Below, one piece after another: positions 44,199-63,727 of a stretch of DNA of 64,000 bases (position 1 is the stretch's first letter; every line of letters starts with the position of its first letter). A model generated the notes under the pieces. It saw only the letters and a list, made by a program, of their open reading frames with translations, ran no database searches and was not told the DNA's origin. The stretch is from positions 3,224 through 67,223 of IMG/VR virus record IMGVR_UViG_3300044814_000107; one strand, given 5' to 3'. The DNA comes from a virus. Its lineage: Duplodnaviria > Heunggongvirae > Uroviricota > Caudoviricetes. Made by a program: the position numbers and the translations under genes.

Positions 44199-44206
44199 GC
44201 CGTCGA

Positions 44207-45385: not shown

Positions 45386-45395
45386 GCCGAGAAGT

Positions 45396-48490: not shown

Positions 48491-48495
48491 TGGGA

Positions 48496-48507: not shown

Positions 48508-48625
48508 CGCGCGAGGGGGTGAGCGGGCAAGTCCGCCGGCTTATCGGCGCTTCGACTTAGCGATCCCGATGATGCGGCCGTCACGGACGTAGAGGGTCAG
48601 TCGCCCAGCTACGTTCGTAGCACTT

Positions 48626-50221
48626 TCAGGCTACTCGGCGGCGTTTGTCGCGGGCGATAGCGGCGCTGATGAGGTCAGACGCCTCGCCCTTCGTCAGGCC
48701 GTCCGTGACCGGGATCCCGTGCTGGTGGAGGAACGCGACCTGCTTCCCGGACGGCGGCTTGGCCCTCCACGGAGCGGTCTTGTCGACGAGAGCCTTCACG
48801 CTGCTGTCCTGGTTACTGCGGAGGAACTCTTCGGCGACGCCCATCGCGTATCCGATGTCGAGTCCTTCGCCGAGGCTGACGTTGCGGCCACCCTTCTCGC
48901 GGCGTATCGCGTCCCATCGTTCGGCGGGTCGCGGGTGGAGGAAGATGTCGCCGAGGTCGCCGAGGTTGAGGAGCCAGCTTCCGTCCTCGAGGCGGAGCCA
49001 GTTGAGGTCCTTCCGCTCGAAGAGGTTCGCGACCTCCATGCCCGCGCCGCTGGCGGTCGGGTCCCAGAGGCCGGCGAGTTTCGCGGGGCCCTGCGCCAGG
49101 ATGCGAACGGCCCCTTCCTTTTCGCAGGATCCGGGCCGGAGGCCGAACATCTTCGGCAGCGACATGATGTCGAGGCGGTCGCTGTTTCCGACGAGGTCGA
49201 GGACGACGAGGTCGTCCTTGCCGGGGTGGAGGCGCGTGCCGCGGCCGACCATCTGGACGTAGAGCGGTCGGCTGCGCGTCGGGCGGGCGACGATGATGCA
49301 GCCGACGGATGGCTCGTCGTATCCCTCGGTTAGGACCATCGCGTTCGCGACGACGCGCGTCTCGCCTGATGCGAACCTGTCGAGGACGGCCCGACGGTCG
49401 GAGATGTCCATGAGTCCGTCGACGGCCTCGGCCGGGACTCCTGCGGCGCTGAACGTGGCCGCCATCTGGTGTGCGGCGACGACGGTCGGGGTGAAGATGA
49501 TCGCTTTGCGGCCGTCCGCGTGTTCGAGGTAGGAGTTCGCCGCGACTGAGTAGGCGTGCGTGGCGTTGAGCATCCCTTCGACGTCGCGGCCGACGAAGTC
49601 GCCTCGGCTGACGCGGAGCTTGCCCATGTCGTAGGCGAGCCGGACGGCGTAGGCGCGGACGTCGACGAGGTATCCAGCGGCGATCATTTCGCGGATGTCC
49701 TTGAAGTAGACGACACGCTCCCAGACGGCTCCGAGGCCGACCCTGTCTCCTCGCTCGAGGGTCGCGCTGACGCCAACGAGCAGCGAACCCGGCGCGCGGG
49801 CGTCGATGATCCGACGGTAGGTGGCGGCGACGGCGTGGTGGGCCTCGTCGATCACGGCCGTCGCGAACAGGTCGAAGGGGAACTCGTCGATTCTGCGCTG
49901 CCGGGAGAGCGACTGAACGCTGGCGATCACGACGTCGTGGTCGATGTCGTTGGTGCCCGCCTGGACGAATCCGATGTCGACCGCTGGGTTGATCTCCCGG
50001 TACTTGTCCGCCGCTTGGCGGAGTAGCTCGTCCCTGTGCGCGAGGATCAGCGTCCGGCCGAGGTGCTTCCGCTCCTCCGCGAGCTGCGAGAAGACGATCG
50101 TCTTGCCTGTCCCCGTCGGGAGTCCGACCGCTGGTGCCATGCAGCCATCGGCCGCGGCGGCGTGAATCGCATCTACGGCTTCTCGCTGGTACGGCCGAAG
50201 CCGGATCGTCGGAACGGTCAC
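48626..50221 (-). CDS. SF2 DEAD/DEAH-box helicase
   Basis: Motif I (LPTGTGKT), motif II (DEAHH), a SAT-like motif and motif VI (QMVGRGTR) are present. The GTG start lies 2 nt after the CTACGGTCGTAGCG motif. Confidence 0.8.
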   Translation of the reverse strand: MTVPTIRLRPYQREAVDAIHAAAADGCMAPAVGLPTGTGKTIVFSQLAEERKHLGRTLILAHRDELLRQAADKYREINPAVDIGFVQAGTNDIDHDVVIASVQSLSRQRRIDEFPFDLFATAVIDEAHHAVAATYRRIIDARAPGSLLVGVSATLERGDRVGLGAVWERVVYFKDIREMIAAGYLVDVRAYAVRLAYDMGKLRVSRGDFVGRDVEGMLNATHAYSVAANSYLEHADGRKAIIFTPTVVAAHQMAATFSAAGVPAEAVDGLMDISDRRAVLDRFASGETRVVANAMVLTEGYDEPSVGCIIVARPTRSRPLYVQMVGRGTRLHPGKDDLVVLDLVGNSDRLDIMSLPKMFGLRPGSCEKEGAVRILAQGPAKLAGLWDPTASGAGMEVANLFERKDLNWLRLEDGSWLLNLGDLGDIFLHPRPAERWDAIRREKGGRNVSLGEGLDIGYAMGVAEEFLRSNQDSSVKALVDKTAPWRAKPPSGKQVAFLHQHGIPVTDGLTKGEASDLISAAIARDKRRRVA

Positions 50222-50223
50222 CG

Positions 50224-50235
50224 CTACGACCGTAG
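50224..50235 (-). promoter_or_regulatory. start-associated motif CTACGGTCGTAGCG, immediately 5' of the helicase GTG
   Basis: Exact 12-mer. Confidence 0.55.
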
Positions 50236-50472
50236 CGCAGCGGTCGGACGGGATCTACGCAGCGCGGAGGAGTTCGAGCTCTTCGAGTTCGACAACGGAC
50301 TCGGGCAGCAGTCGCAGCGGCACCTTGAAGTCCTGCTCGACCTCGTGACGGATCATGGGAAGGTTCCGCCGGCGCGTCTCCGCGTCGATCCGTCTACGGA
50401 TCTCGTCGAGCTCCGGAACGGTGAGGGATCGCCTGTCGATGCGTGGAGTTGAGCAGATCCATCGGCCGGACG

Positions 50473-50841
50473 CTAGGCAACGCGCGCCGCGCGCCGCTCG
50501 AGCTGCTCGGCACGCTGACGGAGCCGACGCCGCTCGCACTCCCTCCGGCCCGAGGCGTAGACGTGCCGGTGACGGCAAGGCGGCAGGTCGCCGCGGAACG
50601 CGCGCATCAGCCGGGCGAGCATCTCGACCTGCGGGTGATGGTGGGCGCACGCGGTCACGCAGTTGTCCTCGTCGAGAGCGAGGTCGGGGCGCTGCTCGCG
50701 CGGGATCAGGTGATGGACGTGGAGGACGCCGCGGCAGTCCCCGCCGAGGAGACGGGCGACACTACAGCGGCCAGCGTCGCGCGCGAGAACGCGCTCGCGG
50801 ACGAGCTTCCACTCGGGTGAGGTGAGGAACGGGTCTGTCAC
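50473..50841 (-). CDS. HNH endonuclease
   Basis: HNH motifs are present: CRGVLHVHHLIPREQ and NCVTACAHHH. Confidence 0.75.
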   Translation of the reverse strand: MTDPFLTSPEWKLVRERVLARDAGRCSVARLLGGDCRGVLHVHHLIPREQRPDLALDEDNCVTACAHHHPQVEMLARLMRAFRGDLPPCRHRHVYASGRRECERRRLRQRAEQLERRAARVA

Positions 50842-50948
50842 AGCGGATCACCGCTAGGAGGATGCCCGACCCGTCGGACAGCAAAACGCCCATAGCGAGC
50901 GCGACGAGCCACAAGCAGGGCCGGTAGAGACTCTACGCCGTGCAGCGA

Positions 50949-51929
50949 TCAGAACGCGACGAGCGGCTCGAAGATCGGCAGCGACTCCTGGTTCGCCTCG
51001 TCCCCAGCAGCAGCGACGTTCTTCACGGCCTGCCGGTAGTAGCTCGGCTTCAACTCGACGCCGATCCCGAAGCGGCCGTTCTGGACGGCCGAGTAGACCT
51101 CCGACCCGACCCCCATGAATGGCGTCAAGACTCGCTCGCCGGGATTCGACCAGAGCACTACAGCCCGGTCGATCACGTCGAGTTGGAGCGGATGAACGTG
51201 CTTCTCGTCCTCGTCGTCGCGGGCCTCACGGAACGGGAGCACACGGTCGAGCCGCACGTCGTCCCAGAACGCGGATGCGTACTGTCGCCAGATCCAGTGC
51301 GAGTAGCGGTTCTCGGTCTGCTTGCCGTCGTAGCCGCGGTAGCGGAGCAGGTCCTCGGGGATAGATCGTTCGCCGGCGTAGTCCAGTAGGCCGTTCGGGT
51401 GTTCCACCGGGACGGGGTTTTCGCCGGCGCTGCGGAAGACGAGGAGGTAGTCGGCCGAGGCGACCGAGCAGCGCGTCGCGTCCTCGACGACTGTCCGGTG
51501 CGTGAGTCCCTTCACCATCGTCCGGTTGCGAACGGTGAGCGGCTCCTTCCAGACGTGGTAGCGGGCGACGTAGTCGAACCCGAGCTCGCGGTGGAGGCGG
51601 ATGATGTCGCCAGGGAAGTCCGTCAGGCCGTCGCCCTTGCCGGTGTTCCCGGTCGGCACGTCCATGCAGTGAACGCAGCTCATCCGACCCGGCATCGTCG
51701 CGCGACCGATCTCCTCAACAAAGAAGCGGTAGTGGTCGAAGAACTCGTCGTAGTCGCGGCTGTTCGAGAGATCCCGCTCGCTCGACGTGTACTGGTAGAG
51801 ACCCGCGAACGGCGGCGAGTAGATCGACAAATGGATCGACCCGTCAGGCAGAGACGGCATAACCTCCATCGCATCGCCGCAGTAGAGGGCGTATCGCTCG
51901 GTGAGCGTCTGGTCTACGACTTGAGCCAT
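50949..51929 (-). CDS. DNA methyltransferase (beta-class N6A/N4C; motif IV SPPF)
   Basis: Track ORF 50949..52367, trimmed to MAQVVDQTL. Motif IV (IYSPPFAG) precedes a C-terminal motif I (VLTPFMGVGSEVYSAVQNGRFGIGVEL), which is the permuted beta-class order. Confidence 0.75.
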   Translation of the reverse strand: MAQVVDQTLTERYALYCGDAMEVMPSLPDGSIHLSIYSPPFAGLYQYTSSERDLSNSRDYDEFFDHYRFFVEEIGRATMPGRMSCVHCMDVPTGNTGKGDGLTDFPGDIIRLHRELGFDYVARYHVWKEPLTVRNRTMVKGLTHRTVVEDATRCSVASADYLLVFRSAGENPVPVEHPNGLLDYAGERSIPEDLLRYRGYDGKQTENRYSHWIWRQYASAFWDDVRLDRVLPFREARDDEDEKHVHPLQLDVIDRAVVLWSNPGERVLTPFMGVGSEVYSAVQNGRFGIGVELKPSYYRQAVKNVAAAGDEANQESLPIFEPLVAF

Positions 51930-53317
51930 GCGGGTACCTCCATCGTGGTCTCGTAGGTTTGGGAGCGGGCGACATCGGTGGCGTCTCGCATGTGCGAGAC
52001 GAGAGCGTCGAACATCCGGTCGGCCTGCGCCGCCTTCCGCTCGAGGCTCCGTAGCGTCGACTCGCCGCCCGTCGTCGTGATGACATCGACGCGGACGGGG
52101 CGCGTCTGGCCGAACCGCCAGCTCCGGCGTACGGCTTGGTAGAACTGCTCGTAGGAGTGGTTCGGGAAGTACGTCATCCGGGCGCAGTGCTGCCAGTTCA
52201 AACCCCACGCTCCGATCGCGGGCTTTGTAACGAGAACGCGGATCTCGCCCCGCCCGAACGCGGCCAGCTTCTCCTCCTTCGCGTCGAGCGAATCGGCGCC
52301 CGAGACCTGGACTGCCCCGTCGATGAGCCGCGAGAGCAGGTCTCCCTCGTCGTTTAGCTGACACCACGCGACTCCGCTGTCGGCGCCTGCGAGCAGCTCG
52401 GCCGCGCGGTCGCAGCGCTCCTCGAGCGTCCGTCGCGCCTCCTCGCGCTCCTCGTTCAGACCTTGCGCCGGCAGATCGAAGAGTTGCCCCTCCCGCGGCC
52501 TGTTCGCGGCGATGATGTGGTCTACCTGCTCAAGTGGGGGAAGTACGAACTGGTCATCGGAGTAGCCGAGATCCGACGGCTTCCGCATCGACCGCGCCCA
52601 CGACGCGACCCAGCGCCAGAACGGGTCCTCAGCGTGGCCCTTGAAGCGCCAGTTCTCGCCGCCACGCGGACGCCACCGGCCACCCATCGACTGAGAGGTC
52701 TTCTCCTTGTTCGTGAAGAACCGAGAGAGCATGTCCATGTGGCCGAGATAGCCAAGCGCCTCGCTCGACGTACCGAGCTCGATGTAGTCGTTCGGCGCAG
52801 CCGTAGCGGTACAGAGAAGGCGGTAGGGAGTCTTGCGGACGAACTCAGTCACGGCCTGTCGGCGCACCCCGTCGAACGCCTTGATCGCGCTCGACTCATC
52901 GCAGACCACCGCTCCGAAGTCGCCCCGGTCGAATAGGTGAAGACGCTCGTAGTTCGCAACTGTGATTCCGGCTGCGATCTTCCCGTCGCGAGAGACAGCC
53001 GCCTCGATCCCGAACTTCTCTGCTTCCCCCTCGGTCTGGTATCCGACGGCGAGAGGCGTCAAAAGGAGAACGGGTTTCCCAGTCGCGCGGCGGGCGTTCT
53101 CTGCCCAGACGAGCTGCATCGGCGTCTTGCCGAGTCCGCAGTCAGCGAAGATCGCTGCTCGGCCCCGAGATACAGCCCACCTTACGAGGTCAGCCTGGAA
53201 GGGGTAGAGGAAGTCGGGCATCCACTCCGGGTCGAAGCCGCTCGCGGCGTCGAGTTGCGTCTTCCTCTCAAGGAAGTCGAGGTAGGTCGCGATCTCCTTC
53301 TGGGACGAGGACGCCAT
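51914..53317 (-). CDS. SF2 helicase-domain protein (possible partner of the methyltransferase)
   Basis: Motif I (ADCGLGKT), motif II (VCDESS), a TAT motif and a helicase-C motif (WRFGQTRPV) are present. The ATG lies 3 nt after the CTACGGTCGTAG motif. The 3' end overlaps the methyltransferase start. Confidence 0.7.
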   Translation of the reverse strand: MASSSQKEIATYLDFLERKTQLDAASGFDPEWMPDFLYPFQADLVRWAVSRGRAAIFADCGLGKTPMQLVWAENARRATGKPVLLLTPLAVGYQTEGEAEKFGIEAAVSRDGKIAAGITVANYERLHLFDRGDFGAVVCDESSAIKAFDGVRRQAVTEFVRKTPYRLLCTATAAPNDYIELGTSSEALGYLGHMDMLSRFFTNKEKTSQSMGGRWRPRGGENWRFKGHAEDPFWRWVASWARSMRKPSDLGYSDDQFVLPPLEQVDHIIAANRPREGQLFDLPAQGLNEEREEARRTLEERCDRAAELLAGADSGVAWCQLNDEGDLLSRLIDGAVQVSGADSLDAKEEKLAAFGRGEIRVLVTKPAIGAWGLNWQHCARMTYFPNHSYEQFYQAVRRSWRFGQTRPVRVDVITTTGGESTLRSLERKAAQADRMFDALVSHMRDATDVARSQTYETTMEVPAWLKS

Positions 53318-53320
53318 TAG

Positions 53321-53332
53321 CTACGACCGTAG
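53321..53332 (-). promoter_or_regulatory. start-associated motif CTACGGTCGTAGCTA, immediately 5' of the ATG at 53317
   Basis: Exact 12-mer. Confidence 0.55.
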
Positions 53333-53358
53333 CGTAAAGATCGGCCGGACAGGGGCCA

Positions 53359-53940
53359 CTACTCGCCCGTTCCTTCTACGTCTAGCTGGGGATGGCCCCT
53401 CAGTGCTTTCGCGCGGGATCTCCTACCCGCCCGCTTATCGGCTGTCGGGCTGAGTCCCATGAAGAACCCCGGCTGCACTCTCCACGCCTCCCATGCTCGG
53501 CCGACAGCGCCCGATCCAGGGAAGAGGTCATCAAGCAGATCGTCAGGTCGAGCGCCGAGCCACTCGAAGATCCAGCGCGAGAACGCTTCGGGCTTCTGCC
53601 CGATGACGTAGCTTTCGGGGATCGGACGCCACGTAAAGCCCTCGGTCTCGCAGTGGATCCAGTCGCGCAGATCCGCCGGCGGGCGGGCGCTTGAGACGAT
53701 CACCGGCTCCCAGCCGTAGCGGACGGTGTTCTTCACCCAGGCGAGAACACGTACTCCGGGCGGGCAGAGAGCGAGTATGTCTCTCAGCGCGGCAGCGCTG
53801 GTCGAGAGCGCCCAGCCGTCGTAGCCGACGAGCCGCTCGAGGAGCTCGACGTGGTCGACCTCGCCCGCGTAGTCCGGGTGGTCCGCGTACAGGTGGGCCT
53901 TCCCAGGGTACGGCGGATCGGCGTAGGCGAGTAGTAGTGG
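53359..53940 (-). CDS. MT-A70 family N6-adenine methyltransferase
   Basis: Track ORF 53359..54294, with the start placed downstream of the CTACGACCGTAG motif at the GTG of VPNEAPLLL. The catalytic motif is DPPY (LLLAYADPPYPG). Confidence 0.65.
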   Translation of the reverse strand, partial: PLLLAYADPPYPGKAHLYADHPDYAGEVDHVELLERLVGYDGWALSTSAAALRDILALCPPGVRVLAWVKNTVRYGWEPVIVSSARPPADLRDWIHCETEGFTWRPIPESYVIGQKPEAFSRWIFEWLGARPDDLLDDLFPGSGAVGRAWEAWRVQPGFFMGLSPTADKRAGRRSRAKALRGHPQLDVEGTGE

Positions 53941-53984
53941 CGCTTCGTTCGGCACGACAGGACGGTACTCGGCACCCCGGACAA

Positions 53985-53996
53985 CTACGGTCGTAG
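53985..53996 (-). promoter_or_regulatory. CTACGACCGTAG motif, about 40 nt 5' of the proposed MT-A70 gene start
   Basis: Exact 12-mer in the opposite centre orientation. Confidence 0.45.
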
Positions 53997-54038
53997 CGAA
54001 TAGTTCACGCAGGCAGTAGTCGCAGGTTTTCGTCTCGC

Positions 54039-55979
54039 TCAGAGAACCCCCGTCAGAGTCAGTCGGCCTAGCCACAACCCTACTTGCTCCGAGACCTGAA
54101 CCTGAACGGAGTTCCCGAGGATGCGGAGTTGAGCCGTCCGCGGGATGTCGACGTCGCTGACCCAGCCCGCGGGGAAGCCGAGCATCCACTCGACGAAGGC
54201 TGGGGCTAGTCGTCCCTGTTCGTCGGTAGGAGCGGGAGCTGGCCGTCCGAGGATTCGCTCCCATCGGTCGACGGCGGGTCCGTAGACGCCCCATTCGACG
54301 TTTCCTCGTTCACCGCGCTCGAGAGCGTCGGACCGCCCGTCCCGAACCTCTGCCCCTTGCTCCCCTTCTCCCCGTCGGAGCTCATCGGGGTCGGCAGCAG
54401 CTTCTTCGTCCTGCCCCGGTTCGGCCGGCCCATCGTGTCCGTCCCCGTCTCGTTTCTGCGGCTCTCGCCGTGCGTCAGCGCCGCCCGCAGTTCGCCTCCC
54501 GCGCCCGGGTTCTCCTCGTTCGCGACCGGCGTCGGCAACAGGGTCGGCTGCTCGCCCTCCTGCGTGAACGGCGTTTCGGAGATCGTCTCGCGCATCGAGA
54601 TCGCCGTCCCGAGCGGCAGAGTCGCCTTCTGGCCCGACGGTCGGCGTCCCGACTGCGACATCGCGCCCCTCTCCTGCCTGCCCCCGTCCCCGTCCGCAGC
54701 CTGCGGCGTCGGCAGCAGCCGCGGCGTCCTCGAGTCGCCTGTCTGGATCGCGTCCGTCAGGCTCACCCCCGAATGCGCCCTCGACCCCTCCAGATTCCGT
54801 GAGCCGCTCGCCTCCGAGTCCCCCGCCGTCGGCGTCGGAAGGAGTTTCCCGTCCACCTGCTGACGGCGAATCTCCGGTCCCAGTAGTCGACGGAACCCGT
54901 CCGGCCTCTCTCCGTCGCCGCCCGTCTGCGCCGTCGGGGTCGGTAGTAGTTTCCCCACGGCCGCGTCCGCCGCAATGAGGTTCAGCGGTGGCGAGTTCCT
55001 CTCCCGCTGCGACGGCCCCGCCGTGTTCTCGCCGTCCTGCGTCGTCGGCGTCGGCAGCAGCCGGTCTACCTCCCGAAGGCTCGGCCCCCCGTCCCTCGTC
55101 TCGCCGTCCGTCAGGCCCCGGCTGTCCGAGACGACCGGCGTCGGCAGCAGCCTTACCTCGGCCGCGATCGCGTCCGGCAGTTCGACCGATCGCTTCCCGC
55201 GCGTCCCCTCGTGCTCCCTCGACGCCGCCCGCTCCGGATCCGCCATCGAGTTCTCCGGCCTCCGACCCAGCCACGCGCCCGGCGTCGGCAGCAGATCCTC
55301 CTCGCCCTTCGGGAGGAGCGCCGGGACCGTCCTCGAGAGCGTCCGCTGCGTCATCCACTTCCGGCCCGGCAGCCACAGCCGGTGAAGCGGATCGTCCGGA
55401 TCCAGGTGCGTCCGGAACTCCTCGAGGAACTCCCCCGTCGGCGTCGACTCCTGCGCCGACGGGGTCGGCAGAAGGAAGTCGGGCGATGAGGAACCATCGG
55501 TCTCGGCCGTGAGGCGCTCCGACATCGGCAGCTCGCAGGCAGTCGTAGGCCCACCGATAGCCGAGCGCGGCCAGGTCGGCGCAGACCACTCCGAGAGCAG
55601 ATTCTCCTGCATCGAGGCGTAGGCCGGCCGCTGTTCGGATTCCGGGGACGTTCTCGAGGACGACGTAGCGGGGACGAAGCGCGCGAAGGGCGTCGGCGAC
55701 TCCGAACCAGACCTGGCCGTGGTCGCCCTCGATCCCGGCTCGGCGCCCGGCGAGGCTGTAGTCGGGGCAGGGGAACCCGGCGGCGAGGAGATCGACTCGC
55801 TCGACGGTGGACCAATCTCGAAAGAGGTCTCCATGATTCGGTACTCCAGGGTAGTGGGTTTCGAGGACGGTGGCCGCGGCCGGGTCGGGCTCCGCGAACC
55901 ACGCCCACTGGATGCCGAGCGCCTGCTCGAGGCCGAGGTCGAGACCACCGCCTCCCGAGCAGAGCGACCCGCCGATCAT
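54039..55979 (-). CDS. Dcm-like DNA cytosine-5 methyltransferase with an aberrant ~1-kb variable region
   Basis: Motif I (LCSGGGGLDLGL), motif IV (FPCPDYS), motif VI (ENVPG), motif VIII (HGRDRWFLIA), motif IX (FVEWMLGFP) and motif X (GNSVQVQ) are all in this frame. The intervening ~330 codons are low-complexity Gly/Arg/Asp/Ala-rich. In the +1 frame (track ORF 54206..55948) the same DNA encodes at least 10 LLPTP repeats. Confidence 0.55.
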   Translation of the reverse strand: MIGGSLCSGGGGLDLGLEQALGIQWAWFAEPDPAAATVLETHYPGVPNHGDLFRDWSTVERVDLLAAGFPCPDYSLAGRRAGIEGDHGQVWFGVADALRALRPRYVVLENVPGIRTAAGLRLDAGESALGVVCADLAALGYRWAYDCLRAADVGAPHGRDRWFLIARLPSADPVGAGVDADGGVPRGVPDAPGSGRSASPAVAAGPEVDDAADALEDGPGAPPEGRGGSAADAGRVAGSEAGELDGGSGAGGVEGARGDAREAIGRTAGRDRGRGKAAADAGRLGQPGPDGRRDEGRGAEPSGGRPAAADADDAGRREHGGAVAAGEELATAEPHCGGRGRGETTTDPDGADGRRRREAGRVPSTTGTGDSPSAGGRETPSDADGGGLGGERLTESGGVEGAFGGEPDGRDPDRRLEDAAAAADAAGCGRGRGQAGEGRDVAVGTPTVGPEGDSAARDGDLDARDDLRNAVHAGGRAADPVADAGRERGEPGRGRRTAGGADARREPQKRDGDGHDGPAEPGQDEEAAADPDELRRGEGEQGAEVRDGRSDALERGERGNVEWGVYGPAVDRWERILGRPAPAPTDEQGRLAPAFVEWMLGFPAGWVSDVDIPRTAQLRILGNSVQVQVSEQVGLWLGRLTLTGVL

Positions 55980-56220
55980 CGCGCGGAGAGAGGGATCTGG
56001 AACGGGGAGTCTGGCGGCGACGTGAACGCGGGTTCGCCGACGATCTCGGTTCGTTCCTCGTCGGAGAGCAGACGGGCGTCGAAGCAGACCTTGACCTCGT
56101 GGAGGACGCAGAGTTCGTGGGCGATCTTGCTCTTCTCGATCCCTGCGGCATCAGCTTCGGCCATCATCAAGCGGACGAGAGCCGTCTCCTCCTCCGTGTA
56201 TTCAGCGACTCGGCCGCTGT
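55976..56220 (-). CDS. hypothetical small protein
   Basis: This is the C-terminal ~80 codons of track ORF 55976..56557, from the GTG (VEIEFPKDSG) that lies about 25 nt downstream of the CTACGACCGTAG motif. Confidence 0.35.
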
Positions 56221-56274
56221 CCTTAGGGAACTCGATCTCCACGAAGGGGTGACCGTAGCCGCCTTCTCGGACGG

Positions 56275-56286
56275 CTACGGTCGTAG
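56275..56286 (-). promoter_or_regulatory. CTACGACCGTAG motif, about 25 nt 5' of the GTG of 55976..56220
   Basis: Exact 12-mer, with a half-site (gaccgtagcc) 15 nt away. Confidence 0.45.
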
Positions 56287-56289
56287 GAC

Positions 56290-56616
56290 TTACAGCGACG
56301 ACGGGCTTGCGCCGGCGACGGCCATCGCGCGGCGAACCCCGCCGATCATCGCCAGCGTGCGAGCTTCGATGCCGAACGCCCGCTCGAGCTGGAGCGAGAG
56401 GTGGTAGAGCCTGCGCCCGAGCCGCCGGTCGAGGTCGGAGGCGTAGGCTCCGGTCGAGTCGTATTCGATCTCGACCATCTTCGCCCAGAACGCGGCGAAG
56501 CGATCCCAGTCGAAGTGGACTCCTTCGTTCTCGACGTACTCCTCGCAGCGGGCGCACCCGTCGACGAGGAACTCGTCGCGCTCGTCCGGGCTCGGGTGGG
56601 CGATGTGGGTCGTCAC
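56290..56616 (-). CDS. hypothetical protein
   Basis: The GTG start (VTTHIAHP) overlaps the upstream stop (GTGA). The sequence is protein-like. Confidence 0.45.
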   Translation of the reverse strand: MTTHIAHPSPDERDEFLVDGCARCEEYVENEGVHFDWDRFAAFWAKMVEIEYDSTGAYASDLDRRLGRRLYHLSLQLERAFGIEARTLAMIGGVRRAMAVAGASPSSL

Positions 56617-57002
56617 CGGACGCACCGGACCGAGATCGTGTACGTCATCTCGGGAATCGCGGTCGGCGGCGGGTTCGGGACCTCGATGTAGCCCTTCGCC
56701 CTCCGAACGCCCTTCAGGACGGCGCTGACCTTGCGACCGACGGGAGTCAGGATCGGCGACTGCTGCCAGCCGCCGCGCCGCGCCTTGTAGGTGAGCCAGA
56801 CTTGGAAGCTGTCCGTCGGGATCCGCGACAGGACGATCCTGCCCGACCTCCTGTGGCAGACGAGCCGTGCTGACGTCCTGCAGGGGAGGTTGTCCCCGTT
56901 GCCGGAGCAGGTCACGGTCTGGCTCGTCGAGGATGACCGCGCGAGCGCGGCCGGGACGAGAACGAGCGCGGCCAGGGCCGCGAGTACGACGAGATTCTTC
57001 AT
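56613..57002 (-). CDS. secreted protein or lipoprotein with a signal peptide
   Basis: Track ORF 56613..57329, trimmed to MKNLVVLAALAALVLVPAALARSSS, which is preceded by AAGGAG. The mature part contains Cys residues. Confidence 0.5.
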   Translation of the reverse strand: MKNLVVLAALAALVLVPAALARSSSTSQTVTCSGNGDNLPCRTSARLVCHRRSGRIVLSRIPTDSFQVWLTYKARRGGWQQSPILTPVGRKVSAVLKGVRRAKGYIEVPNPPPTAIPEMTYTISVRCVR

Positions 57003-57433
57003 TTCACTTCTCCTTCTTGGTCGTGGGGGAATCGGGTTCGGGCGCCGACTGGTTGCGCCCAGCCGGCGCGAAGCGCCTCCCAGACGCGGTCTCGGATCCA
57101 GTCGACGCTGTTCGGGAAGCCGCAGACCTCGGCCCAGCCGTCGAGGATCGCTTCGACGTTCGCATCGGGTAGCGGGCCGTCGAACGGCGGGATGACGCAG
57201 AGCAGTTCGGTCGTCCCGTCGCCGAGGCGGAGCAGGTAGAGCTCGCCGGGGTCGGCGGATGTCGGACCGCGTCCGAGGGGGCCGATCCATGTCAGCCGGT
57301 AGTGGTCGCGGCCCGAGCCGCCGCGCCACAGGACTCCGAACTCGTAGCCGTCCTCCATGTAGCCGCCGTCCGTTCGGGGCTGGATCTGGCGGTTCCGCAG
57401 CAGGTCGGCGAGGGTGGGGAAGATGACGCTCAC
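56999..57433 (-). CDS. hypothetical protein
   Basis: Trimmed to a GTG preceded by GGAGG (VSVIFPTL). The stop overlaps the next start. Confidence 0.5.
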   Translation of the reverse strand: MSVIFPTLADLLRNRQIQPRTDGGYMEDGYEFGVLWRGGSGRDHYRLTWIGPLGRGPTSADPGELYLLRLGDGTTELLCVIPPFDGPLPDANVEAILDGWAEVCGFPNSVDWIRDRVWEALRAGWAQPVGARTRFPHDQEGEVK

Positions 57434-57645
57434 GACTCGCCTCCGTGCGAGCGGATGTACTCGAGAGCCTCCTCGGGACTGATGAACGCGAACGGGGTCG
57501 CGTCGATCTCGGCCGCCTTCAGGCCGTGCTGCGCGATACAGATGCGGCAGACCCACCACTGTCCGATCGCGCCGACGGTGACCTTGACCGGCTCGTCCCA
57601 CTCGATCTCCGGGTAGCTGTCGCGGAGTTCCTGTACGGAGATCAC
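57430..57645 (-). CDS. hypothetical small protein
   Basis: Coupled to its neighbours by GTGA overlaps at both ends. The 71-aa product is protein-like. Confidence 0.45.
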   Translation of the reverse strand: MISVQELRDSYPEIEWDEPVKVTVGAIGQWWVCRICIAQHGLKAAEIDATPFAFISPEEALEYIRSHGGES

Positions 57646-58106
57646 TGGTCGCGTCCGATCCGCGGGCTGAGCAGACCGCCGCGGCTGAGTTCAGCCCCGA
57701 GCGGGTAGTGCGCGTCCGTCCTGCGGCGTCCCTTCCCGGGCGAGTTCACGATCTTCGCGAGGTGACGCTCGACGAGCGCCTCCCGCAGGCCCGGCTCGAA
57801 CTCGTAGGGAACGCCGCCGGGCCAGAGCTCGTGTGTATCGCGGAGCCCGAGCCCGTCGTCGACAACGTGGACGAACCAGCGATCGCCGGCGCGGTTACAC
57901 GCCCGCCAGATCGTCGCGCCGAACGACGTATCCTCCTCGTCGGCGCGAGCGGCCATGACTTCCCCGACTCGCGCGAGGCCGCGCTCGTAGACCTCTCCGG
58001 CCGCATCCTTATCGGGGAACTCGAAGGCGAAGACGTCGACGCGGTCGATCATCTCCGTCAGGGTTTCGACGCCCCGAGCGAGGCGTTCAGTGTTGGTGGT
58101 TTCCAT
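57642..58106 (-). CDS. hypothetical protein
   Basis: GGAAGGAGAG precedes the ATG. Confidence 0.55.
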   Translation of the reverse strand: METTNTERLARGVETLTEMIDRVDVFAFEFPDKDAAGEVYERGLARVGEVMAARADEEDTSFGATIWRACNRAGDRWFVHVVDDGLGLRDTHELWPGGVPYEFEPGLREALVERHLAKIVNSPGKGRRRTDAHYPLGAELSRGGLLSPRIGRDQ

Positions 58107-58411
58107 CAGTGTTCTCTCCTTCCGGCCGTAGGACGGCCTATGGTCGTTTCTCTTTCAGGTCGGTGCCAGCAGGGGATTAGCCAGCGGCCGGCGACAGCGT
58201 CGAGGACGCCGATCGCGCCGAGGTCGCAGAGCCGCCGGCCGTGCTCGGCCTCGTCCGCGTCGAGCTGGCGGAGCGCCGGCCCGAGCCCCTCGAAGTCGGT
58301 CGCGGCGACGACGCGGAGTCGTTTCCCGACCCGCGCGTAGATGCGGAGACGATGCTCCTCGTCGAGCGGGTAGAGCGCCGTCGACGGAATCACGTAGGTC
58401 GGGCGCGCCAT
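58106..58411 (-). CDS. hypothetical protein
   Basis: Track ORF 58106..58543, trimmed to MARPTYVIP. The start overlaps the upstream stop (TGATG). Confidence 0.45.
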   Translation of the reverse strand: MARPTYVIPSTALYPLDEEHRLRIYARVGKRLRVVAATDFEGLGPALRQLDADEAEHGRRLCDLGAIGVLDAVAGRWLIPCWHRPERETTIGRPTAGRREH

Positions 58412-58890
58412 CAGATGTCGCGCCCCCGTTCGCGAAGTACCGAGACCAGCTCGGCCTCGGCGCAGGCGTCGATTAGCAGGATCGCCCACCGGAGCGCCGC
58501 GAGCTCCTCGCGGGTGCGGTCGGCGTCGCGGCGCGGATCCCACTCCGCGAGGCGACGCTCGAGCCGGTCCCGTCGGCGATCAAGCGCCGCGCGGTAGTCC
58601 CGCTCGCGCTTCCTGAGCTGCGGCACCGCCTCGTTCGGGAGTTTCACCATCGCCAGCGCCGGGTCGTCGATGGTGCTGTCGCGCCTGACCTCCTGCGCGG
58701 ACTGGAGACAGCGAAGGCACCACGCTATGCGGGCGCTATTCGCCTCTCGCCTCGTTACCGGCCGAAGACTGATCGCCGTTCCGCAGAACGGCTGGCCGGC
58801 GTCGTCCAGCAGGTGCAGGTCGAGGGTGTGGCCGCGCGAGGCGACCACACCCTCGTACCCGCCGAACCACGTCAGGGACTTCGTCGCCAT
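58411..58890 (-). CDS. hypothetical protein
   Basis: GGAGACG precedes the ATG. The 159-aa product is protein-like. Confidence 0.5.
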   Translation of the reverse strand: MATKSLTWFGGYEGVVASRGHTLDLHLLDDAGQPFCGTAISLRPVTRREANSARIAWCLRCLQSAQEVRRDSTIDDPALAMVKLPNEAVPQLRKRERDYRAALDRRRDRLERRLAEWDPRRDADRTREELAALRWAILLIDACAEAELVSVLRERGRDI

Positions 58891-59672
58891 TAGGCCGACG
58901 TCTCCTCCGCGGTCGAAACGGCGGCGGCCGCGATTGCAAGCGCGTGCGCGACCTTCGGTACGTCCGCCTTACGGCTGACCGTCCGGGTCAGACCCCACTT
59001 CGTCTCGTGGAAGCCCGCTCCCGCAGGGAGGCTTTCCATGACCGCCATCAGCGGCTTCGGGATCTTCACCGGCTGGCCGGTCGCGCGGCCCTTCTCGAGA
59101 TACGCGAACGCCTTCTTCCCGACCAGCAGCCGGGTCATTCCGGAGGCGTTCGTCGCGACCTCGACGCCAGCGACGCGCTCCTTTACCGCTGCGATCAGGA
59201 CGGCCGCGAGATCCTCGCCGCCCTCCTGCCGCTTCTGCGGCGTCTTCTTCGTGGTCGTATTCTCCGCCACGGAGTCCTCCTTCGTAGGGGTGGTAGGCGG
59301 GGGAGCCTCACTAGCGACGCGGCGAGAGCGGTAGCGACTGCTAGCGGTCGTCGGGCGTTCGCCTTGAAGGTCTGCTCCCCCGTTAGGCCGACCGCGACTG
59401 CGGCCGACCGCCGAGCGACCCGTCCCGGCGAGGGAGAACGGGTCGCTCGGCGCTCGGTCGATGTTGTTGGGGCCGTAGATGTTGACGTTTCCGTGACCGT
59501 CGGCGTCCGTACGGCCGACGACCTTGCCTGACGGATCGCGGACGTAGAAGCTCGCCTCGACGCCGCCGCGCGTGGCCTCGTTCGCGACCGTGATCGCGGC
59601 GGACAGGCCGAGAGCAGCGCTCTCGGCCTTCCTGTCCACCTCGGGTCCGGTGACGGTGTACCGAGCCTTCAC
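58890..59672 (-). CDS. hypothetical two-domain protein
   Basis: Track ORF 58890..59873, trimmed to a GTG preceded by GAGGAG (VKARYTVTGPEV). A Pro/Thr-rich linker separates two domains. The C-terminal domain contains LLVGKKAFAYLEKGRATGQPVKIP. Confidence 0.5.
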   Translation of the reverse strand: MKARYTVTGPEVDRKAESAALGLSAAITVANEATRGGVEASFYVRDPSGKVVGRTDADGHGNVNIYGPNNIDRAPSDPFSLAGTGRSAVGRSRGRPNGGADLQGERPTTASSRYRSRRVASEAPPPTTPTKEDSVAENTTTKKTPQKRQEGGEDLAAVLIAAVKERVAGVEVATNASGMTRLLVGKKAFAYLEKGRATGQPVKIPKPLMAVMESLPAGAGFHETKWGLTRTVSRKADVPKVAHALAIAAAAVSTAEETSA

Positions 59673-60355
59673 GAAGTGCTCCTCGGGTCGTCCAGCGAGC
59701 GGACGGGGTTCCGCTCGAAGAACCGAACGTAGAGCTGCTCGAGCTCGGCGACGTCGAATCGCTCGCGCGGTACCCCGATCCGCTCGAAGTCGGCGCGGTC
59801 GAGGACGTGCGCTGCGAGTTTCGCTGCGTCGCCCTGCTCGACGACCGGGTCGCAGTCGGGGCAGGCGGCCCAATACTCATCTTGGACGATTGTGGCGACG
59901 CCCGATCCGACCTCCGGACGCCCCGGGGAGGCGATGAGGATGTCCTCGACGAGATGGCCGTCGGTCGTGTACGTGACGACGTTCTCCCCGAGCAGGTGGC
60001 AACAGAAGTCGCAGACGCCTCCCTCCGCGACGTTCTGTGCCGCCCACTCGTTCGCGTCGGCTGCTGCGCGGTCGATGAACTCCTGCGGGTTCCGGGCGTG
60101 CCGCTTCTCGACGCTCGTCCTGACGTTCTCGCGGACAGACTCGATCTCCTCCTCGGAGTAGCCGAGGTCGGCGACACCGTCGATCCCTTGCTTCCCGCCG
60201 ACGACGTCGATCTCGTACTGCCAATCCTCGCCGGACTTGAGCGTCAGTTCGCAGCGACAGCGATGGGACTCCGCCGACAGGAAGGCCGCGTGCGGCTTCC
60301 TGATGGCGTAGCGGTTCCCCGAGGGGTAGACGGCGACGACCTGAAACTCGGCCAC
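59669..60355 (-). CDS. hypothetical Cys-containing protein
   Basis: The 228-aa product is protein-like (CRCELT...CDFCCHLL...CPDCDP). The stop overlaps the next GTG. Confidence 0.5.
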   Translation of the reverse strand: MAEFQVVAVYPSGNRYAIRKPHAAFLSAESHRCRCELTLKSGEDWQYEIDVVGGKQGIDGVADLGYSEEEIESVRENVRTSVEKRHARNPQEFIDRAAADANEWAAQNVAEGGVCDFCCHLLGENVVTYTTDGHLVEDILIASPGRPEVGSGVATIVQDEYWAACPDCDPVVEQGDAAKLAAHVLDRADFERIGVPRERFDVAELEQLYVRFFERNPVRSLDDPRSTS

Positions 60356-60727
60356 CTAGACCGCCCCCTCGTCCTTCGCGCGGGCCTCGTCCGAGGCGCG
60401 GTCGAAACGCTCGACCGTCTTCACGATCCCCTCAACCGCGCGGTCGCGCGCCTCGAGGACATCGCGTCCGCTCCGTTCGAGGACGTACTCCGGAGAACCC
60501 TTCGTCCCCGGTTCTACCTCGGTGCGCGAGGGGACGTACGAGTTGTAGAAGTCGCGATGCCCCTCGGGGCCGAGTGCGATCTCTCCCGCTTCGAGCAGGC
60601 GGTCGGCCGTCCGTCCGACGTGGCCTTCGAGGTGCCACGCGAGTCCGGTATCGACCAGCTCTTGGTAACAGGCGACGACCTCCTCCTCGGAGGCCGTCTC
60701 GTCGTAGAGCGCAGTCAGGTCGGCCAT
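60356..60727 (-). CDS. hypothetical protein
   Basis: GGAGGCGAGC precedes the ATG. Confidence 0.5.
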   Translation of the reverse strand: MADLTALYDETASEEEVVACYQELVDTGLAWHLEGHVGRTADRLLEAGEIALGPEGHRDFYNSYVPSRTEVEPGTKGSPEYVLERSGRDVLEARDRAVEGIVKTVERFDRASDEARAKDEGAV

Positions 60728-61015
60728 CTAGCTCGCCTCCCCGGGAGCGCCGAGGTACTCGATCCGACGCGCGACGACGGCGAAGTGGCCGTCTGTCGAC
60801 TGGATTCGTCCGTCGATGGCGATACGCCGACCCTTCGAGAGGTACTGGCTAGCGAGTTCGGCCTGCCTGCCGAAAGTCTCGACAGAGATTAGGTCAGTAC
60901 CGCCAGCGCTGGTCGGGCGGTCGACCGCGAGGGTGAAGGTTGCCTTCGCCTCGCTGCCGACGCCTTCAGCCTCTACGTCGGTCGTCAGGTTACCGATCAG
61001 GGTGACGAGGTTCAT
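60728..61015 (-). CDS. short SSB-like OB-fold protein
   Basis: The product reads MNLVTLIGNLTTDVE...FTLAVDR...ETFGRQAELASQYLSKGRRIAIDGRIQS. This pattern resembles the SSB N-terminal OB fold. Confidence 0.6.
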   Translation of the reverse strand: MNLVTLIGNLTTDVEAEGVGSEAKATFTLAVDRPTSAGGTDLISVETFGRQAELASQYLSKGRRIAIDGRIQSTDGHFAVVARRIEYLGAPGEAS

Positions 61016-61440
61016 GCCGCCACCGCCGCCCAGACCCGCGCCTCGTAGCCGCGATCGTCGATAGTCCCGCGTCCGCGCCGCGACGCGACGAGCGAGGGTG
61101 CCGCTTCGACGGCCTTCCGCAGTTTCGTAACAGCGAGCGGGTCGCTCCCTGTCTTCTGCGTCGCGACCGTGTCGATCCCGAGCGCTCTCGCCCGGTCGCA
61201 GAGCGCGTAGTACGCCTCTGGCGTGATAAACGAATCGGCCAGCGAGGACAGGTCTGCCCTGCGGACCCTCTCGCGGATTAGCTGGCCGTCGACGTAGAAG
61301 TCGGCGGTCAGGAACCGCGACGCCGCGCCGTTGTCGGTCGCGTCGTTCATCAGCGTCCGGGCCGCGACGACCGCAGACTCCGGATTCTCCGCCTCGGCTG
61401 TATCGCCGTTCGAGAGGCGGATCTCGATCATGGTTTCCAT
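61012..61440 (-). CDS. hypothetical protein
   Basis: The 142-aa product is protein-like. The stop overlaps the SSB-like gene start (ATGA). Confidence 0.5.
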   Translation of the reverse strand: METMIEIRLSNGDTAEAENPESAVVAARTLMNDATDNGAASRFLTADFYVDGQLIRERVRRADLSSLADSFITPEAYYALCDRARALGIDTVATQKTGSDPLAVTKLRKAVEAAPSLVASRRGRGTIDDRGYEARVWAAVAA

Positions 61441-61572
61441 CTGTTTGCCCTACTTTCCGCCCCGTCCCCGGGGCCGTTGTTATCTGCTGTTGTTGTAACA
61501 GGTTCGTAGCGTCACCGCCAGCCGCAAGACGAGTTATCTAGCGGAATACGAGGCTACGTCGTAGCGTTACTC

Positions 61573-61800
61573 TCAGGTCGTCGCCGCGAGAAGCGCGTCG
61601 CGCAGGTCAGCCCACGCGCTCGTCTCAGGCAGCGACGTAAAGAGGCGGTCGCATATCTCGCGGGGAGACTCCCCCCGGCGGATCGCGACGCAGTAGACGC
61701 TCGCCAGAAGGAAGGCGTCAGCGATCTCCGGCTCCTGCTCGAGCAGAGCCGTTGTCGACCGGAGAACCGCGTTGCCCTTCTCCTCGGTCTCGGTGTCCAT
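61573..61800 (-). CDS. hypothetical small protein
   Basis: This is the C-terminal 75 aa of track ORF 61573..62049 (MDTETEEKGN...). The upstream part is Arg/Pro-rich noise. Confidence 0.35.
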   Translation of the reverse strand: MDTETEEKGNAVLRSTTALLEQEPEIADAFLLASVYCVAIRRGESPREICDRLFTSLPETSAWADLRDALLAATT

Positions 61801-61877
61801 CGAAGCGGCCGGCTGCGAGTCGAACGCGCTGATCCCGACTGGATCGTCGGGCTGCCCCCGTGGGCTCGGCCGCGTGG

Positions 61878-62519
61878 TCAGGCTATCGCGCGCTTCGGAT
61901 ACGGGCGGCGGCGCAGCTCGACGAGCTCGCGCATATCCGAGTCGAGCGGCATTTCGTAGCGGTATTTCCCCGGCATCGTCCGGGTCGGCGTCGTGGCGAG
62001 TCGGCCGCTCTCGCGGAGGTCGTAGTAGACGCCCTTCTTGTGCCTCCACCGGCCACCGACGAAGTATTCGACGACGCTCGCGGACTGGCCGGTGAAGATC
62101 CAGTTGCCCGCCTGGTAGATCCCGCCGACGTGGTCCTGCGACGGGTCGGCGAACGAGACGACGAGACGGAGGCCAGGGTTCGACCGCTTCAAGAAGCGGA
62201 GCGCGATCGCGACGATCTTCGAGACCGGCGCGTCATGCTCGCGGAGCGCTACCCGCGTCAGCTCGCAGACCTCCGTGTGGTCGAGGTCGAACTGCCGGCC
62301 GAGGTGCGGGGACGCGCCGCGGGAGAAGATCACGACGCCCTTGAAGTGTTCGTCCTCCCAGACGCCGACGATGACGAGTTTCCCGGTCGGCAGGACGCCG
62401 GCGTAGTGCCAGCGAGTGCAGGCGAACTCGGCGGCCGCGTGGTCGGCAAAAGCGAGGCGGAGGGCTCCTCCGGAGGAGCGTTCAGTGGCACCCTCGAGCC
62501 ATTCGCGCTCGCTCGGCAT
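61878..62519 (-). CDS. conserved phage protein of unknown function
   Basis: Trimmed to MPSEREW. The product is protein-like (WHYAGVLPTGKLVIVGVWEDEHFKGVVIFSRG...YQAGNWIFTGQS). Confidence 0.5.
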   Translation of the reverse strand: MPSEREWLEGATERSSGGALRLAFADHAAAEFACTRWHYAGVLPTGKLVIVGVWEDEHFKGVVIFSRGASPHLGRQFDLDHTEVCELTRVALREHDAPVSKIVAIALRFLKRSNPGLRLVVSFADPSQDHVGGIYQAGNWIFTGQSASVVEYFVGGRWRHKKGVYYDLRESGRLATTPTRTMPGKYRYEMPLDSDMRELVELRRRPYPKRAIA

Positions 62520-62535
62520 CCCTTCGCCGTCAGAG

Positions 62536-62841
62536 CTAGCCACGCTGTACCACGTCCTCTCTGACGATGCCGGTCATCGGTTCGCTCTGGCCGATCGCGC
62601 CGCACTTCGTACAAGCAAAGCGCAGGACGCCCTCGACGAGCGGGATACCGTGAACGTGCGGCCTGTCGGAGTCGCGGTACTCGTTCGTCTGACGCCATAC
62701 ATGCTCGCAGGCGGCAGACGGGGTGTAGCCGGCGCACTCGCACGGGCCGCGCTTCGGATCGGCGAAAGCGTGGAGGCAGCGCCGACCCCGCGTGAAGGCG
62801 TGATCGCTTTCGGGATGCCCACACTCGCAAGCGGACTCGCT
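62536..62841 (-). CDS. small Cys-rich (zinc-binding) protein
   Basis: This is the C-terminal 102 codons of track ORF 62536..63489 (MSESACECGHPESDH...CECAGY...CEHVW...CTKCG). The ATG overlaps the ParB-like gene stop (ATGA). Confidence 0.4.
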   Translation of the reverse strand, partial: SESACECGHPESDHAFTRGRRCLHAFADPKRGPCECAGYTPSAACEHVWRQTNEYRDSDRPHVHGIPLVEGVLRFACTKCGAIGQSEPMTGIVREDVVQRG

Positions 62842-63482
62842 CATGTGCGCTCGGCCGCCTCGCGGACCGCCCGTACGACCGCCTCCGCCGCCGTCTCGAG
62901 GCCCCACTCGCGGCGCAGGATCGAGACGTGTCGGGCGAAGTCCTGGCGACCCTCGCGCGAGAGAAGCAGCGGTACCTCGAACGTCTCCGGAAGCGGGGAG
63001 CGCGCGTCGAGCGCCGGGACCCCTTCGACCTCGGGGAACTGTGGGTCGGCGAGGAACGCGAGCCGTTCGGCGAGCTCGGCGGCGTCCTCCTGCGAGTAGC
63101 CGGTCCCCTCGAAGTTGGCGAGGTCGGCTAGCTGCGCGGCGAGCAGCTCCTCGTCGAAGCCACCGGCGCGCCCGGTCGCGTTGTCGCCGACGAGGTAGGC
63201 GCGAGCTTCCTCCTCGTTCGCGAACTGGTTCGGGATCGCGGCGATGTGCGTCCAGCCGAGAGACCGAGCCGCAGCGACGCGGGTGTGGCCGGCGACGATG
63301 CGCGAGCCGTCGACGCTGATTGGGAGCACCTGCCCGAATCGGGCGAGCGAGCGCGAGACGAGTTCGACATCGCCTTGGTTCGGGTTGCCGGGCCACGGCT
63401 CGAGCGAGTCGATCTCGACGAGGAACCGCTTCAGATCCGCGGCGCCGTTCCAGACCTTCGGCTTCGTACGAGGAGGCGTCAC
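62841..63482 (-). CDS. ParB-like nuclease domain protein
   Basis: Track ORF 62841..63788, trimmed to the GTG (VTPPRTKPKVW) that overlaps the upstream stop (GTGA). The product carries a ParB/Srx N-terminal domain motif (LVEIDSLEPWPGNPNQGDVELVSRSLARFGQVLPISVDGSRIVAGHTRVAAAR). Confidence 0.7.
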   Translation of the reverse strand: MTPPRTKPKVWNGAADLKRFLVEIDSLEPWPGNPNQGDVELVSRSLARFGQVLPISVDGSRIVAGHTRVAAARSLGWTHIAAIPNQFANEEEARAYLVGDNATGRAGGFDEELLAAQLADLANFEGTGYSQEDAAELAERLAFLADPQFPEVEGVPALDARSPLPETFEVPLLLSREGRQDFARHVSILRREWGLETAAEAVVRAVREAAERT

Positions 63483-63727
63483 AAGGCACCCAGGAGCCAC
63501 GTAGCGACCCGGTAGAGGCCGACGAAGGCTGCGAGCAGGAGAACCGCCACCAGCGCGTAGACGAGCAGTACGAAGGCCCGGCCGACGACCGCCCCGACGA
63601 CCGAACCGATGGCGGCGCTCAGCGGCGCGCGGGCGCGGTTGCGCGCCTTCTCCTGCAGCTTCGCTACGCGCGCCCCGATCTCGGGATCGTCGGCGCCGCC
63701 GATCATCGGCACGTCGTCCTTCTTCAC
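63479..63727 (-). CDS. small membrane protein
   Basis: The GTG start overlaps the stop of the upstream partial gene (GTGA). It has C-terminal transmembrane helices (FVLLVYALVAVLLLAAFVGLY). Confidence 0.4.
   Translation of the reverse strand: MKKDDVPMIGGADDPEIGARVAKLQEKARNRARAPLSAAIGSVVGAVVGRAFVLLVYALVAVLLLAAFVGLYRVATWLLGAL

Follow-up and report, generated by a model that had tools for sequence, protein, structure and literature searches.

The stretch analysed here, called the window, comprises 64,000 nucleotides (nt) of a tailed phage (Caudoviricetes; IMG/VR record IMGVR_UViG_3300044814_000107, positions 3,224 to 67,223). This text concerns the genes at 48.6-63.5 kb of the window and above all a C5 methyltransferase gene whose coding information appears to be divided between two overlapping reading frames. 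All credible genes of this span are on the minus strand. A cluster of methyltransferase genes alone is ordinary in a phage; this C5 gene is not. Its open reading frames (ORFs) and repeated units are given below by window coordinates.

54039-55979, minus strand: ORF-A (frame A), C5 methyltransferase, 646 amino acids (aa); PF00145 matches aa 5-168 only (E 1.5e-34).
54206-55612, minus strand: ORF-B (frame A+1), nested inside ORF-A, 468 aa if read from the ATG at 55612.
55474, 55294, 55150, 55060, 54949, 54844, 54718, 54541 and 54400, minus strand: starts of the LLPTP units of ORF-B.

Frame A carries motifs I-VIII (55979-55482), then a stop-free stretch of 396 aa rich in Gly, Ala, Asp, Glu and Arg, then WGxY and motifs IX-X (54302-54039). 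The motifs are found in order: SLCSGGGGLD, GFPCP, ENV and RDRWF in the catalytic part, FVEWMLG and GNSV for IX-X. Motif IV is PCP; the usual form is PCQ. This is the gene that an earlier note, made from the sequence without database searches, had called a Dcm-like methyltransferase; the family assignment is borne out over the N-terminal half only. The note overlooked the two-frame structure of the gene, as well as a Mom-family gene at 61878-62543.

Three-frame translation of the 393 codons between motif VIII and WGxY gives a meaningful reading in the +1 frame (frame B). It consists of nine units, all different, of the form LLPTPxAxDxxGG. Frame B matches phrog_1008 ('DNA methyltransferase', E 2.9e-20) and is covered by database ORFs P0001 and P0241. 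Third-position guanine-plus-cytosine (GC) content over the array is at least 0.9 in frame B versus about 0.55 in frame A. In the standard C5 layout, the region between VIII and IX is in one frame with motifs I-VIII; here, the region homologous to that of relatives lies in A+1. A full-length homologue aligns to M.HhaI and M.HaeIII over the catalytic part only. A scan of viral contigs with a repaired N-terminal part of the C5 methyltransferase gave no match. A sequencing or assembly error was considered as the source of the frame offset and rejected: the Logan assembly of SRR24887271 is 100% identical over window positions 44206-64000, although this second assembly may stem from the same reads.

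The layout was compared in 14 loci: the window; the GFPCPDYS sub-type (L001, L003-L008); the GFPCQ sub-type (L048-L051); Gordonia phage Upyo; Arthrobacter phage Colucci. In all 14, 0-16 codons separate motif VIII from the first unit, which lies in the +1 frame, and the spacers after motif VIII differ among loci only by multiples of three. Nested layout: motifs IX-X are back in frame A, with the return just before WGxY, and the array has 2-11 units (window, L003, L007, L008, L048-L051). Two-part layout: IX-X are in frame B, with the frame-A stop 12-126 codons beyond VIII (L001, L004, L005, Upyo, Colucci). The two-part genes of the cultured phages are gp54/gp53 of Upyo and gp82/gp83 of Colucci; both genes of each pair are annotated as DNA methylase or methyltransferase. 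Mixed layout: units are found in both frames (L006, P0003, P0004). In other relatives everything is in one frame (among them P0005, P0007, P0009, P0013, P0015, P0016; mycobacteriophages Filuzino, DillTech15 and Seagreen; Arthrobacter phage MidnightRain), and the ancestral order was therefore catalytic part, units, IX-X.

Relatives of the array are found in 33 Arthrobacter phage records (tblastn). At least 12 domain-less 'hypothetical' database proteins correspond to nested-type frame-B ORFs, their ends being +1 'shadows' of the catalytic motifs. The two-frame layout is kept in at least 12 metagenomic lineages plus the cultured phages. Two of the loci show further features. In Upyo (MT521997, locus L052, 1501-1590), an intact first unit (VLPTPTVGNGTGGNLTRSG) in the same frame as gp53 precedes the annotated GTG start of this gene and overlaps the end of gp54; this start is probably annotated too far downstream. 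In L005 (JGI 3300065926, about 2520-3147), an ORF of LAGLIDADG type (..AAGLVDGEGC..) is inserted between motifs VI and VIII of the C5 gene and shares its frame with the frame-B ORF.

Both frames are under selection. Over the first unit, differences among five loci at codon positions 1, 2 and 3 of frame B amount to 0.16, 0.09 and 0.39, a pattern that implies purifying selection in frame B; the frame-A residues over the same unit are not conserved. Frame A is stop-free across the array in all eight loci that have IX-X in frame A, where the third frame has 3-11 stops, and is closed in all three metagenomic loci that have IX-X in frame B (8/0 versus 0/3, exact P 0.006). When frame-B codons were shuffled, a stop-free frame A was obtained with per-locus P of 0.0024-0.26 (Fisher-combined 3.4e-6; window, 0.004). 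In the frame-A reading of the array, Gly makes up 22-26%, Ala 16-22% and hydrophobic residues 7-11%, and the net charge is -10 to -45, a composition like that of a disordered tether. Selection seems to keep the overlapped part of the outer gene open and to do nothing more there. Two apparent signals upstream of the junction were dropped. The openness of frame B there is not significant (P about 0.19 for 75 stop-free codons; background stop density in the +2 frame, 0.0094 per codon). Homology of this stretch to the linker of in-frame relatives gave a weak match of 12 bits and was discarded because the frame-B N-termini are the +1 'shadow' of catalytic motifs (ENVPGLL read as RxCQGSL).

A +1-frame ATG (55612 in the window) is located 107 nt before motif VIII in 7/7 loci of the sub-type of the window. 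From this ATG, the next six degenerate codons of invariant residues, all within eight codons, have invariant A/T third positions (GAT GCA .. GAR TCT GCT .. GGA), versus pairwise differences of 0.44-0.46 at synonymous sites elsewhere in the catalytic part. The frozen synonymous sites indicate a constraint at the nucleotide level where an internal start would be. The GFPCQ sub-type, Upyo and Colucci share another +1-frame ATG, 53 nt before motif VIII, which is made by a rare TAT Tyr codon. Shine-Dalgarno-like runs at other candidate frame-B starts are explained by the frame-A residues IEGE.

The LLPTP units are located between motifs VIII and IX, and in-frame relatives have nothing else there. 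In a C5 enzyme, the recognition domain can be nowhere but between these two motifs (PMC3404938). For eight of the nine window units, similar units (0.6-0.9 of the self-alignment score) occur in the arrays of other loci at different positions; unit 1 almost invariably comes first. The identification of the units as recognition modules is drawn from position and modularity, since neither a confident fold nor a match among PDB sequences was obtained for them. The recognition loop of M.HhaI, TLSAYGGG, may resemble PTPTAxDGxGG.

Several known C5 systems have part of this layout. Multispecific C5 enzymes of Bacillus phages carry 3-5 modules. Those of phages SPR, phi3T, rho11s, H2 and phiBssHII, as far as the literature listed in PMC8936443 describes them, share with the present family several different tandem modules between VIII and IX that are shuffled among relatives; this is a likeness of layout. 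The present arrays differ in having 9-11 units, which are short, rich in Gly, Pro and Thr, not confidently folded and encoded in a different reading frame. M.AquI is a two-chain C5 enzyme: alpha has motifs I-VIII, beta has part of the variable region and IX-X (PMC3404938). Its split after motif VIII is that of L001, L004, L005, Upyo gp54/gp53 and Colucci gp82/gp83. The window and seven other loci differ from it in having IX-X back in the catalytic frame and a stop-free frame A; their array ORF is therefore fully nested and not simply downstream. M.EcoHK31I also has two chains, beta, which the enzyme needs, being encoded in another frame entirely inside the alpha gene (PMC2836561), as ORF-B is entirely inside ORF-A. 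The nested chain of M.EcoHK31I is small and carries motif IX, and its recognition domain is on the large chain; in window-type loci, the nested ORF has 440-540 codons and the whole array but no motif IX, and IX-X are on the outer chain behind the disordered linker. The nested form differs from both two-chain enzymes in the length of its ORF, in carrying the whole array, in keeping IX-X on the catalytic chain and in having an outer stretch that is seemingly only kept open. Literature searches found no description of a nested, array-bearing C5 layout.

The other genes of the span that were matched to families or modelled are the following.

48626-50221, minus strand: RadD-like superfamily 2 (SF2) helicase, 531 aa; Pfam ResIII (E 1e-25) and Helicase_C (E 2e-14).
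50473-50841, minus strand: HNH endonuclease, 122 aa; PF01844 (E 9.3e-6, 26.1 bits versus a cut-off of 21.4).
50949-51929, minus strand: beta-class N6/N4 DNA methyltransferase, 326 aa; PF01555 (N6_N4; E 8.8e-12, profile positions 1-221 of 221).
51914-53317, minus strand: second SF2 helicase, partner of the methyltransferase, 467 aa; phrog_62 (E 4.6e-53) and phrog_16 (E 1.6e-22).
53359-53955, minus strand: DPPY...FPGSG protein, 198 aa, beta-class amino-methyltransferase fold (AlphaFold model).
60728-61015, minus strand: short SSB-like protein with an oligonucleotide/oligosaccharide-binding (OB) fold, 95 aa; PF00436 (E 1.3e-15).
61878-62543, minus strand: Mom-family DNA-modification protein, 221 aa; PF25680 (E 5.8e-40, profile positions 2-202 of 202).
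62841-63482, minus strand: protein with a ParB-like N-terminal domain, 213 aa; phrog_723 (E 3.3e-29).

The earlier note had described a dense DNA-modification island. The density exceeds this description: five predicted modifying enzymes are found in 12 kb (50949-62543), namely the methyltransferase with an SPPF motif, the DPPY protein, the C5 methyltransferase, the Mom-family protein and the embedded repeat-array ORF. The note's beta-class methyltransferase with a start overlapping an SF2 helicase gene, its further SF2 helicase (48626-50221) and its SSB-like and ParB-like proteins are all recovered by profile matches, that of the ParB-like protein being to phrog_723. Its two HNH nucleases are reduced to one: Pfam and a motif scan give no second HNH in 48000-64000, and the second (HNH_3) sits past base 64000, in the longer Logan contig.

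The methyltransferase at 50949-51929 matches phrog_67 (E 5.9e-32). Its motif IV, SPPF, is near the N-terminus and ahead of motif I, as in the beta class. N4-cytosine enzymes typically have SPPF at this motif. The true start is the ATG at 51929, which has GGAGG upstream and gives a 16-nt overlap with the 3' end of the helicase gene at 51914-53317. This helicase is without a Pfam match. It is present in 312 phage records (tblastn), including Mycobacterium, Flavobacterium, Arthrobacter and Pseudomonas phages and cyanophages, and in these records its relatives often adjoin a methyltransferase or are fused with one. In Synechococcus phage S-H1 (MK105819, locus L047 3995-7337), the two genes of the pair overlap in the same way and a RadD-like helicase gene comes next; protein identities are 57% for the helicase, 64% for the methyltransferase and 38% for the RadD-like helicase. 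The methyltransferase homologue of S-H1 is annotated 'adenine-specific methyltransferase'. As S-H1 is a marine cyanophage and the present phage has 68% GC, the shared trio implies module exchange across very distant phage-host systems. The RadD-like helicase of the window matches the NCBIfam RadD family (E 6.5e-45), under the family cut-off.

The pair had been likened to a split DarB of phage P1. The likeness is a methyltransferase domain and an SF2 helicase domain together in a phage. DarB is one protein of 2,255 aa with an N-terminal methyltransferase and a C-terminal helicase; the pair consists of two proteins (467 and 326 aa) in the reverse order, helicase first, and its methyltransferase is beta-class with SPPF. 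Searches with blastp and phmmer against DarB (AF234172) gave no significant match (best blastp E 0.099), and homology to DarB was rejected. Judged by sequence, the pair is a widespread conserved module and no split DarB.

The DPPY protein had been labelled an MT-A70 methyltransferase. This label (PF05063) is not retained: there is no Pfam match, the motif is DPPY and not of DPPW type, and the fold is nearer to beta-class enzymes. Searches of Pfam (E 0.01), PHROGs, NCBIfam and PDB sequences gave no match. The AlphaFold2 model has a predicted local distance difference test (pLDDT) score of 78; the top Foldseek matches are CcrM, M1.HpyAVI and RsrI, which are weak (E about 1e-3, template modelling score 0.4-0.5), and structures of the MT-A70 clade (AMT1, METTL4, MTA1) rank below CcrM and M1.HpyAVI. 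On this model, the label 'beta-class methyltransferase-like' is justified. More than 5,800 uncharacterised proteins of roughly 190 aa form one family with the DPPY protein; the ADPPYPG and GSG motifs are invariant among them, and the family may represent a minimal type of beta-class DNA methyltransferase. Members (including P0121-P0240) are 60-70% identical and are without Pfam model or name.

The Mom-family protein scores 137.6 bits against PF25680 (cut-off 27.1) and matches phrog_1384, 'Mom-like DNA modification protein' (E 1.7e-45). Its likeness to Mom of phage Mu is one of family membership, the profile being matched over its full length. The ParB-like protein scores below the cut-off of TIGR00180 (E 5.6e-4; 19.7 bits versus 58.45) and has no Pfam match at 0.01; the gene is also called in the identical Logan contig, in whose precomputed table ParB_N is listed only as 'faint'. 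In locus L003 (3723-4910), a 395-aa protein combines a ParB-like domain with an N6_N4 methyltransferase domain; the ParB-like protein of the window is without the methyltransferase part. The HNH, SSB-like, ParB-like and RadD-like genes are more readily explained as common genes of a phage early region, with tasks in replication, recombination or packaging, and the second helicase gene is likewise better taken for an ordinary early-region gene.

The genome of the phage has at least 92 kb and 68% GC, database copies of its proteins being found on a 92-kb JGI contig; GC in the window is 65-71%. A megablast of the whole span gave no match to any known phage at the DNA level. The remaining features are as follows.

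45396-48002, minus strand: large terminase gene interrupted by an intein that has a LAGLIDADG homing-endonuclease domain; Pfam Terminase_6C, LAGLIDADG_3, Hom_end and, weakly, Hint_2.
47999-48490, minus strand: small terminase-like gene (terS), downstream of the island in the direction of transcription.
24833, 29312, 31339, 32468, 36383, 39104, 48496, 48609, 50224, 53321, 53985 and 56274: sites of the palindrome GCTACGGTCGTAG.
48496-48508, 50224-50236, 53321-53333 and 53985-53997: copies of the palindrome in the island.
15455-15530: tRNA-Thr-GGT, reaches the Rfam gathering score.
21585-21657: tRNA-Met-CAT, reaches the Rfam gathering score.
43169-43251: tRNA-Ser-CGA, ARAGORN only, below the Rfam gathering score.
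43912-43997: tRNA-Ser-GCT, ARAGORN only, below the Rfam gathering score.

Portal, head-morphogenesis, major head and major tail genes are further downstream than the terminase genes. This arrangement identifies the 48.6-63.5 kb span as the region of early DNA metabolism in a tailed phage. A distance of about 24 kb, occupied by many unrelated genes, separates the portal gene (18315-21365) from the terminase genes; such an order is unusual in tailed phages. Between the portal and terminase genes, 40602-42710 (minus strand) encodes a 702-aa protein matching phrog_850, 'RNA-binding protein' (E 5e-84). This gene is near the two tRNA-Ser genes, and Rfam finds no other RNA family nearby; over the window, the Rfam scan gave nothing besides tRNAs. 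The 13-base-pair palindrome has 12 sites with 19 strand-matches at up to two mismatches (expected, 2.5; maximum in 100 shuffles, 7). Most copies are 3-30 nt upstream of minus-strand start codons, including those of terS, both helicase genes and the DPPY gene. Possible roles are those of a phage promoter, an operator or a start-associated signal.

From the gene content, the frame layout with its conservation and the selection on both frames, all of which are shown here, a C5 enzyme made from two overlapping genes is proposed, and this proposal is given about an even chance of being correct. ORF-A (55979-54039) would provide a catalytic subunit, its core (I-VIII) and IX-X being joined by a disordered, acidic, Gly/Ala-rich linker of about 400 residues. 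ORF-B (about 55612-54206), nested in the +1 frame of this linker, would provide a modular recognition subunit, its nine units taking the place of the target-recognition domain. ORF-B would start at its own ATG, and the two polypeptides would assemble, as do those of M.AquI and M.EcoHK31I. The units would direct methylation to several different sequences, and such multispecific methylation may give the phage protection against many restriction systems. Orphan phage methyltransferases and Mom normally serve to shield phage DNA from restriction by the host; this would also be the most likely role of the Mom-family protein and the methyltransferases here, and the dense enzyme set of the island probably marks the phage's own DNA.

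Several points weigh against this proposal, and some of them speak for other explanations. No Shine-Dalgarno sequence precedes the ATG at 55612. L008 has an in-frame TAG after this ATG, and no ATG, GTG or TTG is left before its first unit. The +1 offset shared by 14/14 loci could reflect ribosomal +1 frameshifting, or simply common descent. AlphaFold gives low confidence on the units (pLDDT 35-69, in-frame homologue), and a profile of the units found nothing among PDB sequences. Heavy methylation is a liability in hosts that restrict methylated DNA, and the conservation of the helicase/methyltransferase/RadD-like trio across distant phages may indicate a role linked to replication. The start-related points and the constant offset, with spacers varying by multiples of three, would fit a single C5 polypeptide produced by recoding, ribosomes shifting +1 after motif VIII and, in window-type genes, -1 before WGxY; recoding has been proposed for a Streptomyces phage terminase (PMC10732093). 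This explanation is considered unlikely. No conserved slippery site or rare codon is found at either junction across the loci, in L048 and L051 there is even an overlap between motif VIII and the LLPTP codons, and there would be no precedent for two programmed shifts in succession within a single gene. Recoding also gives no reason for a frame A open over 390-480 codons, nor for synonymous sites frozen at an ATG 107 nt upstream. Two separately initiated polypeptides are favoured, with roughly half of the overall confidence. An inherited defect (a decaying pseudogene, or a gene in which only ORF-A matters and the open second frame is a high-GC by-product) is very improbable. It would fit the failure of AlphaFold to fold the units and the long spurious ORFs held by high-GC DNA, in which stops in the +2 frame are as scarce as noted above. 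It does not fit the purifying-selection pattern and high GC3 of frame B, unit types kept across loci diverged to about 40% identity, a frame A whose openness beats codon shuffles and tracks the location of IX-X, or a layout that persists in many metagenomic lineages and in cultured phages; an assembly error is excluded by the identical second assembly.

The role of the cluster can also be explained otherwise: its genes would serve replication, recombination, packaging or timing, and methylation would be a regulatory or self-marking signal. The genes are in an early/replication region beside terminase genes, and an HNH gene near terminase genes is typically related to packaging. The palindrome shared before several genes suggests coordinated regulation. 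The trio is conserved from cyanophages to this high-GC phage; because of this conservation in S-H1, and that of the helicase in 312 records, it can be explained as a DNA-metabolism module no less well than as an anti-restriction device. On the other side, Mom of phage Mu has a known anti-restriction role, the multi-module C5 enzymes of Bacillus phages are known anti-restriction devices, and regulation alone would seemingly call for fewer than five modification genes. A cluster that is not mainly anti-restriction is held to be rather improbable.

Many phage lineages apparently maintain about 1.2 kb of DNA as open sequence and read it in both frames. The two-frame C5 gene is split or misinterpreted by gene callers; in databases it is present as domain-less hypothetical proteins (P0001, P0017, P0025 and relatives) or, in cultured phages, as a pair of genes annotated 'DNA methylase'. 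If the array is a detachable, modular specificity subunit, it would be a natural system for reprogramming C5 methylation by unit swapping and would explain how soil phages cope with hosts that hold many restriction systems. More tentatively, and with some doubt, this widespread actinophage C5 family may have turned the recognition region into a separate, exchangeable specificity subunit: a gene of 1.2-1.5 kb nested in the +1 frame, with 9-11 shuffled modules, far more multispecific than the Bacillus phage enzymes, the read-through of the catalytic frame being only a disordered tether. If true, this would be among the longest same-strand dual-coding regions known in a phage, would extend the short list of overlapping genes in phages by a long nested one under selection, and would bring a specificity-subunit logic like that of Type I systems to C5 enzymes.

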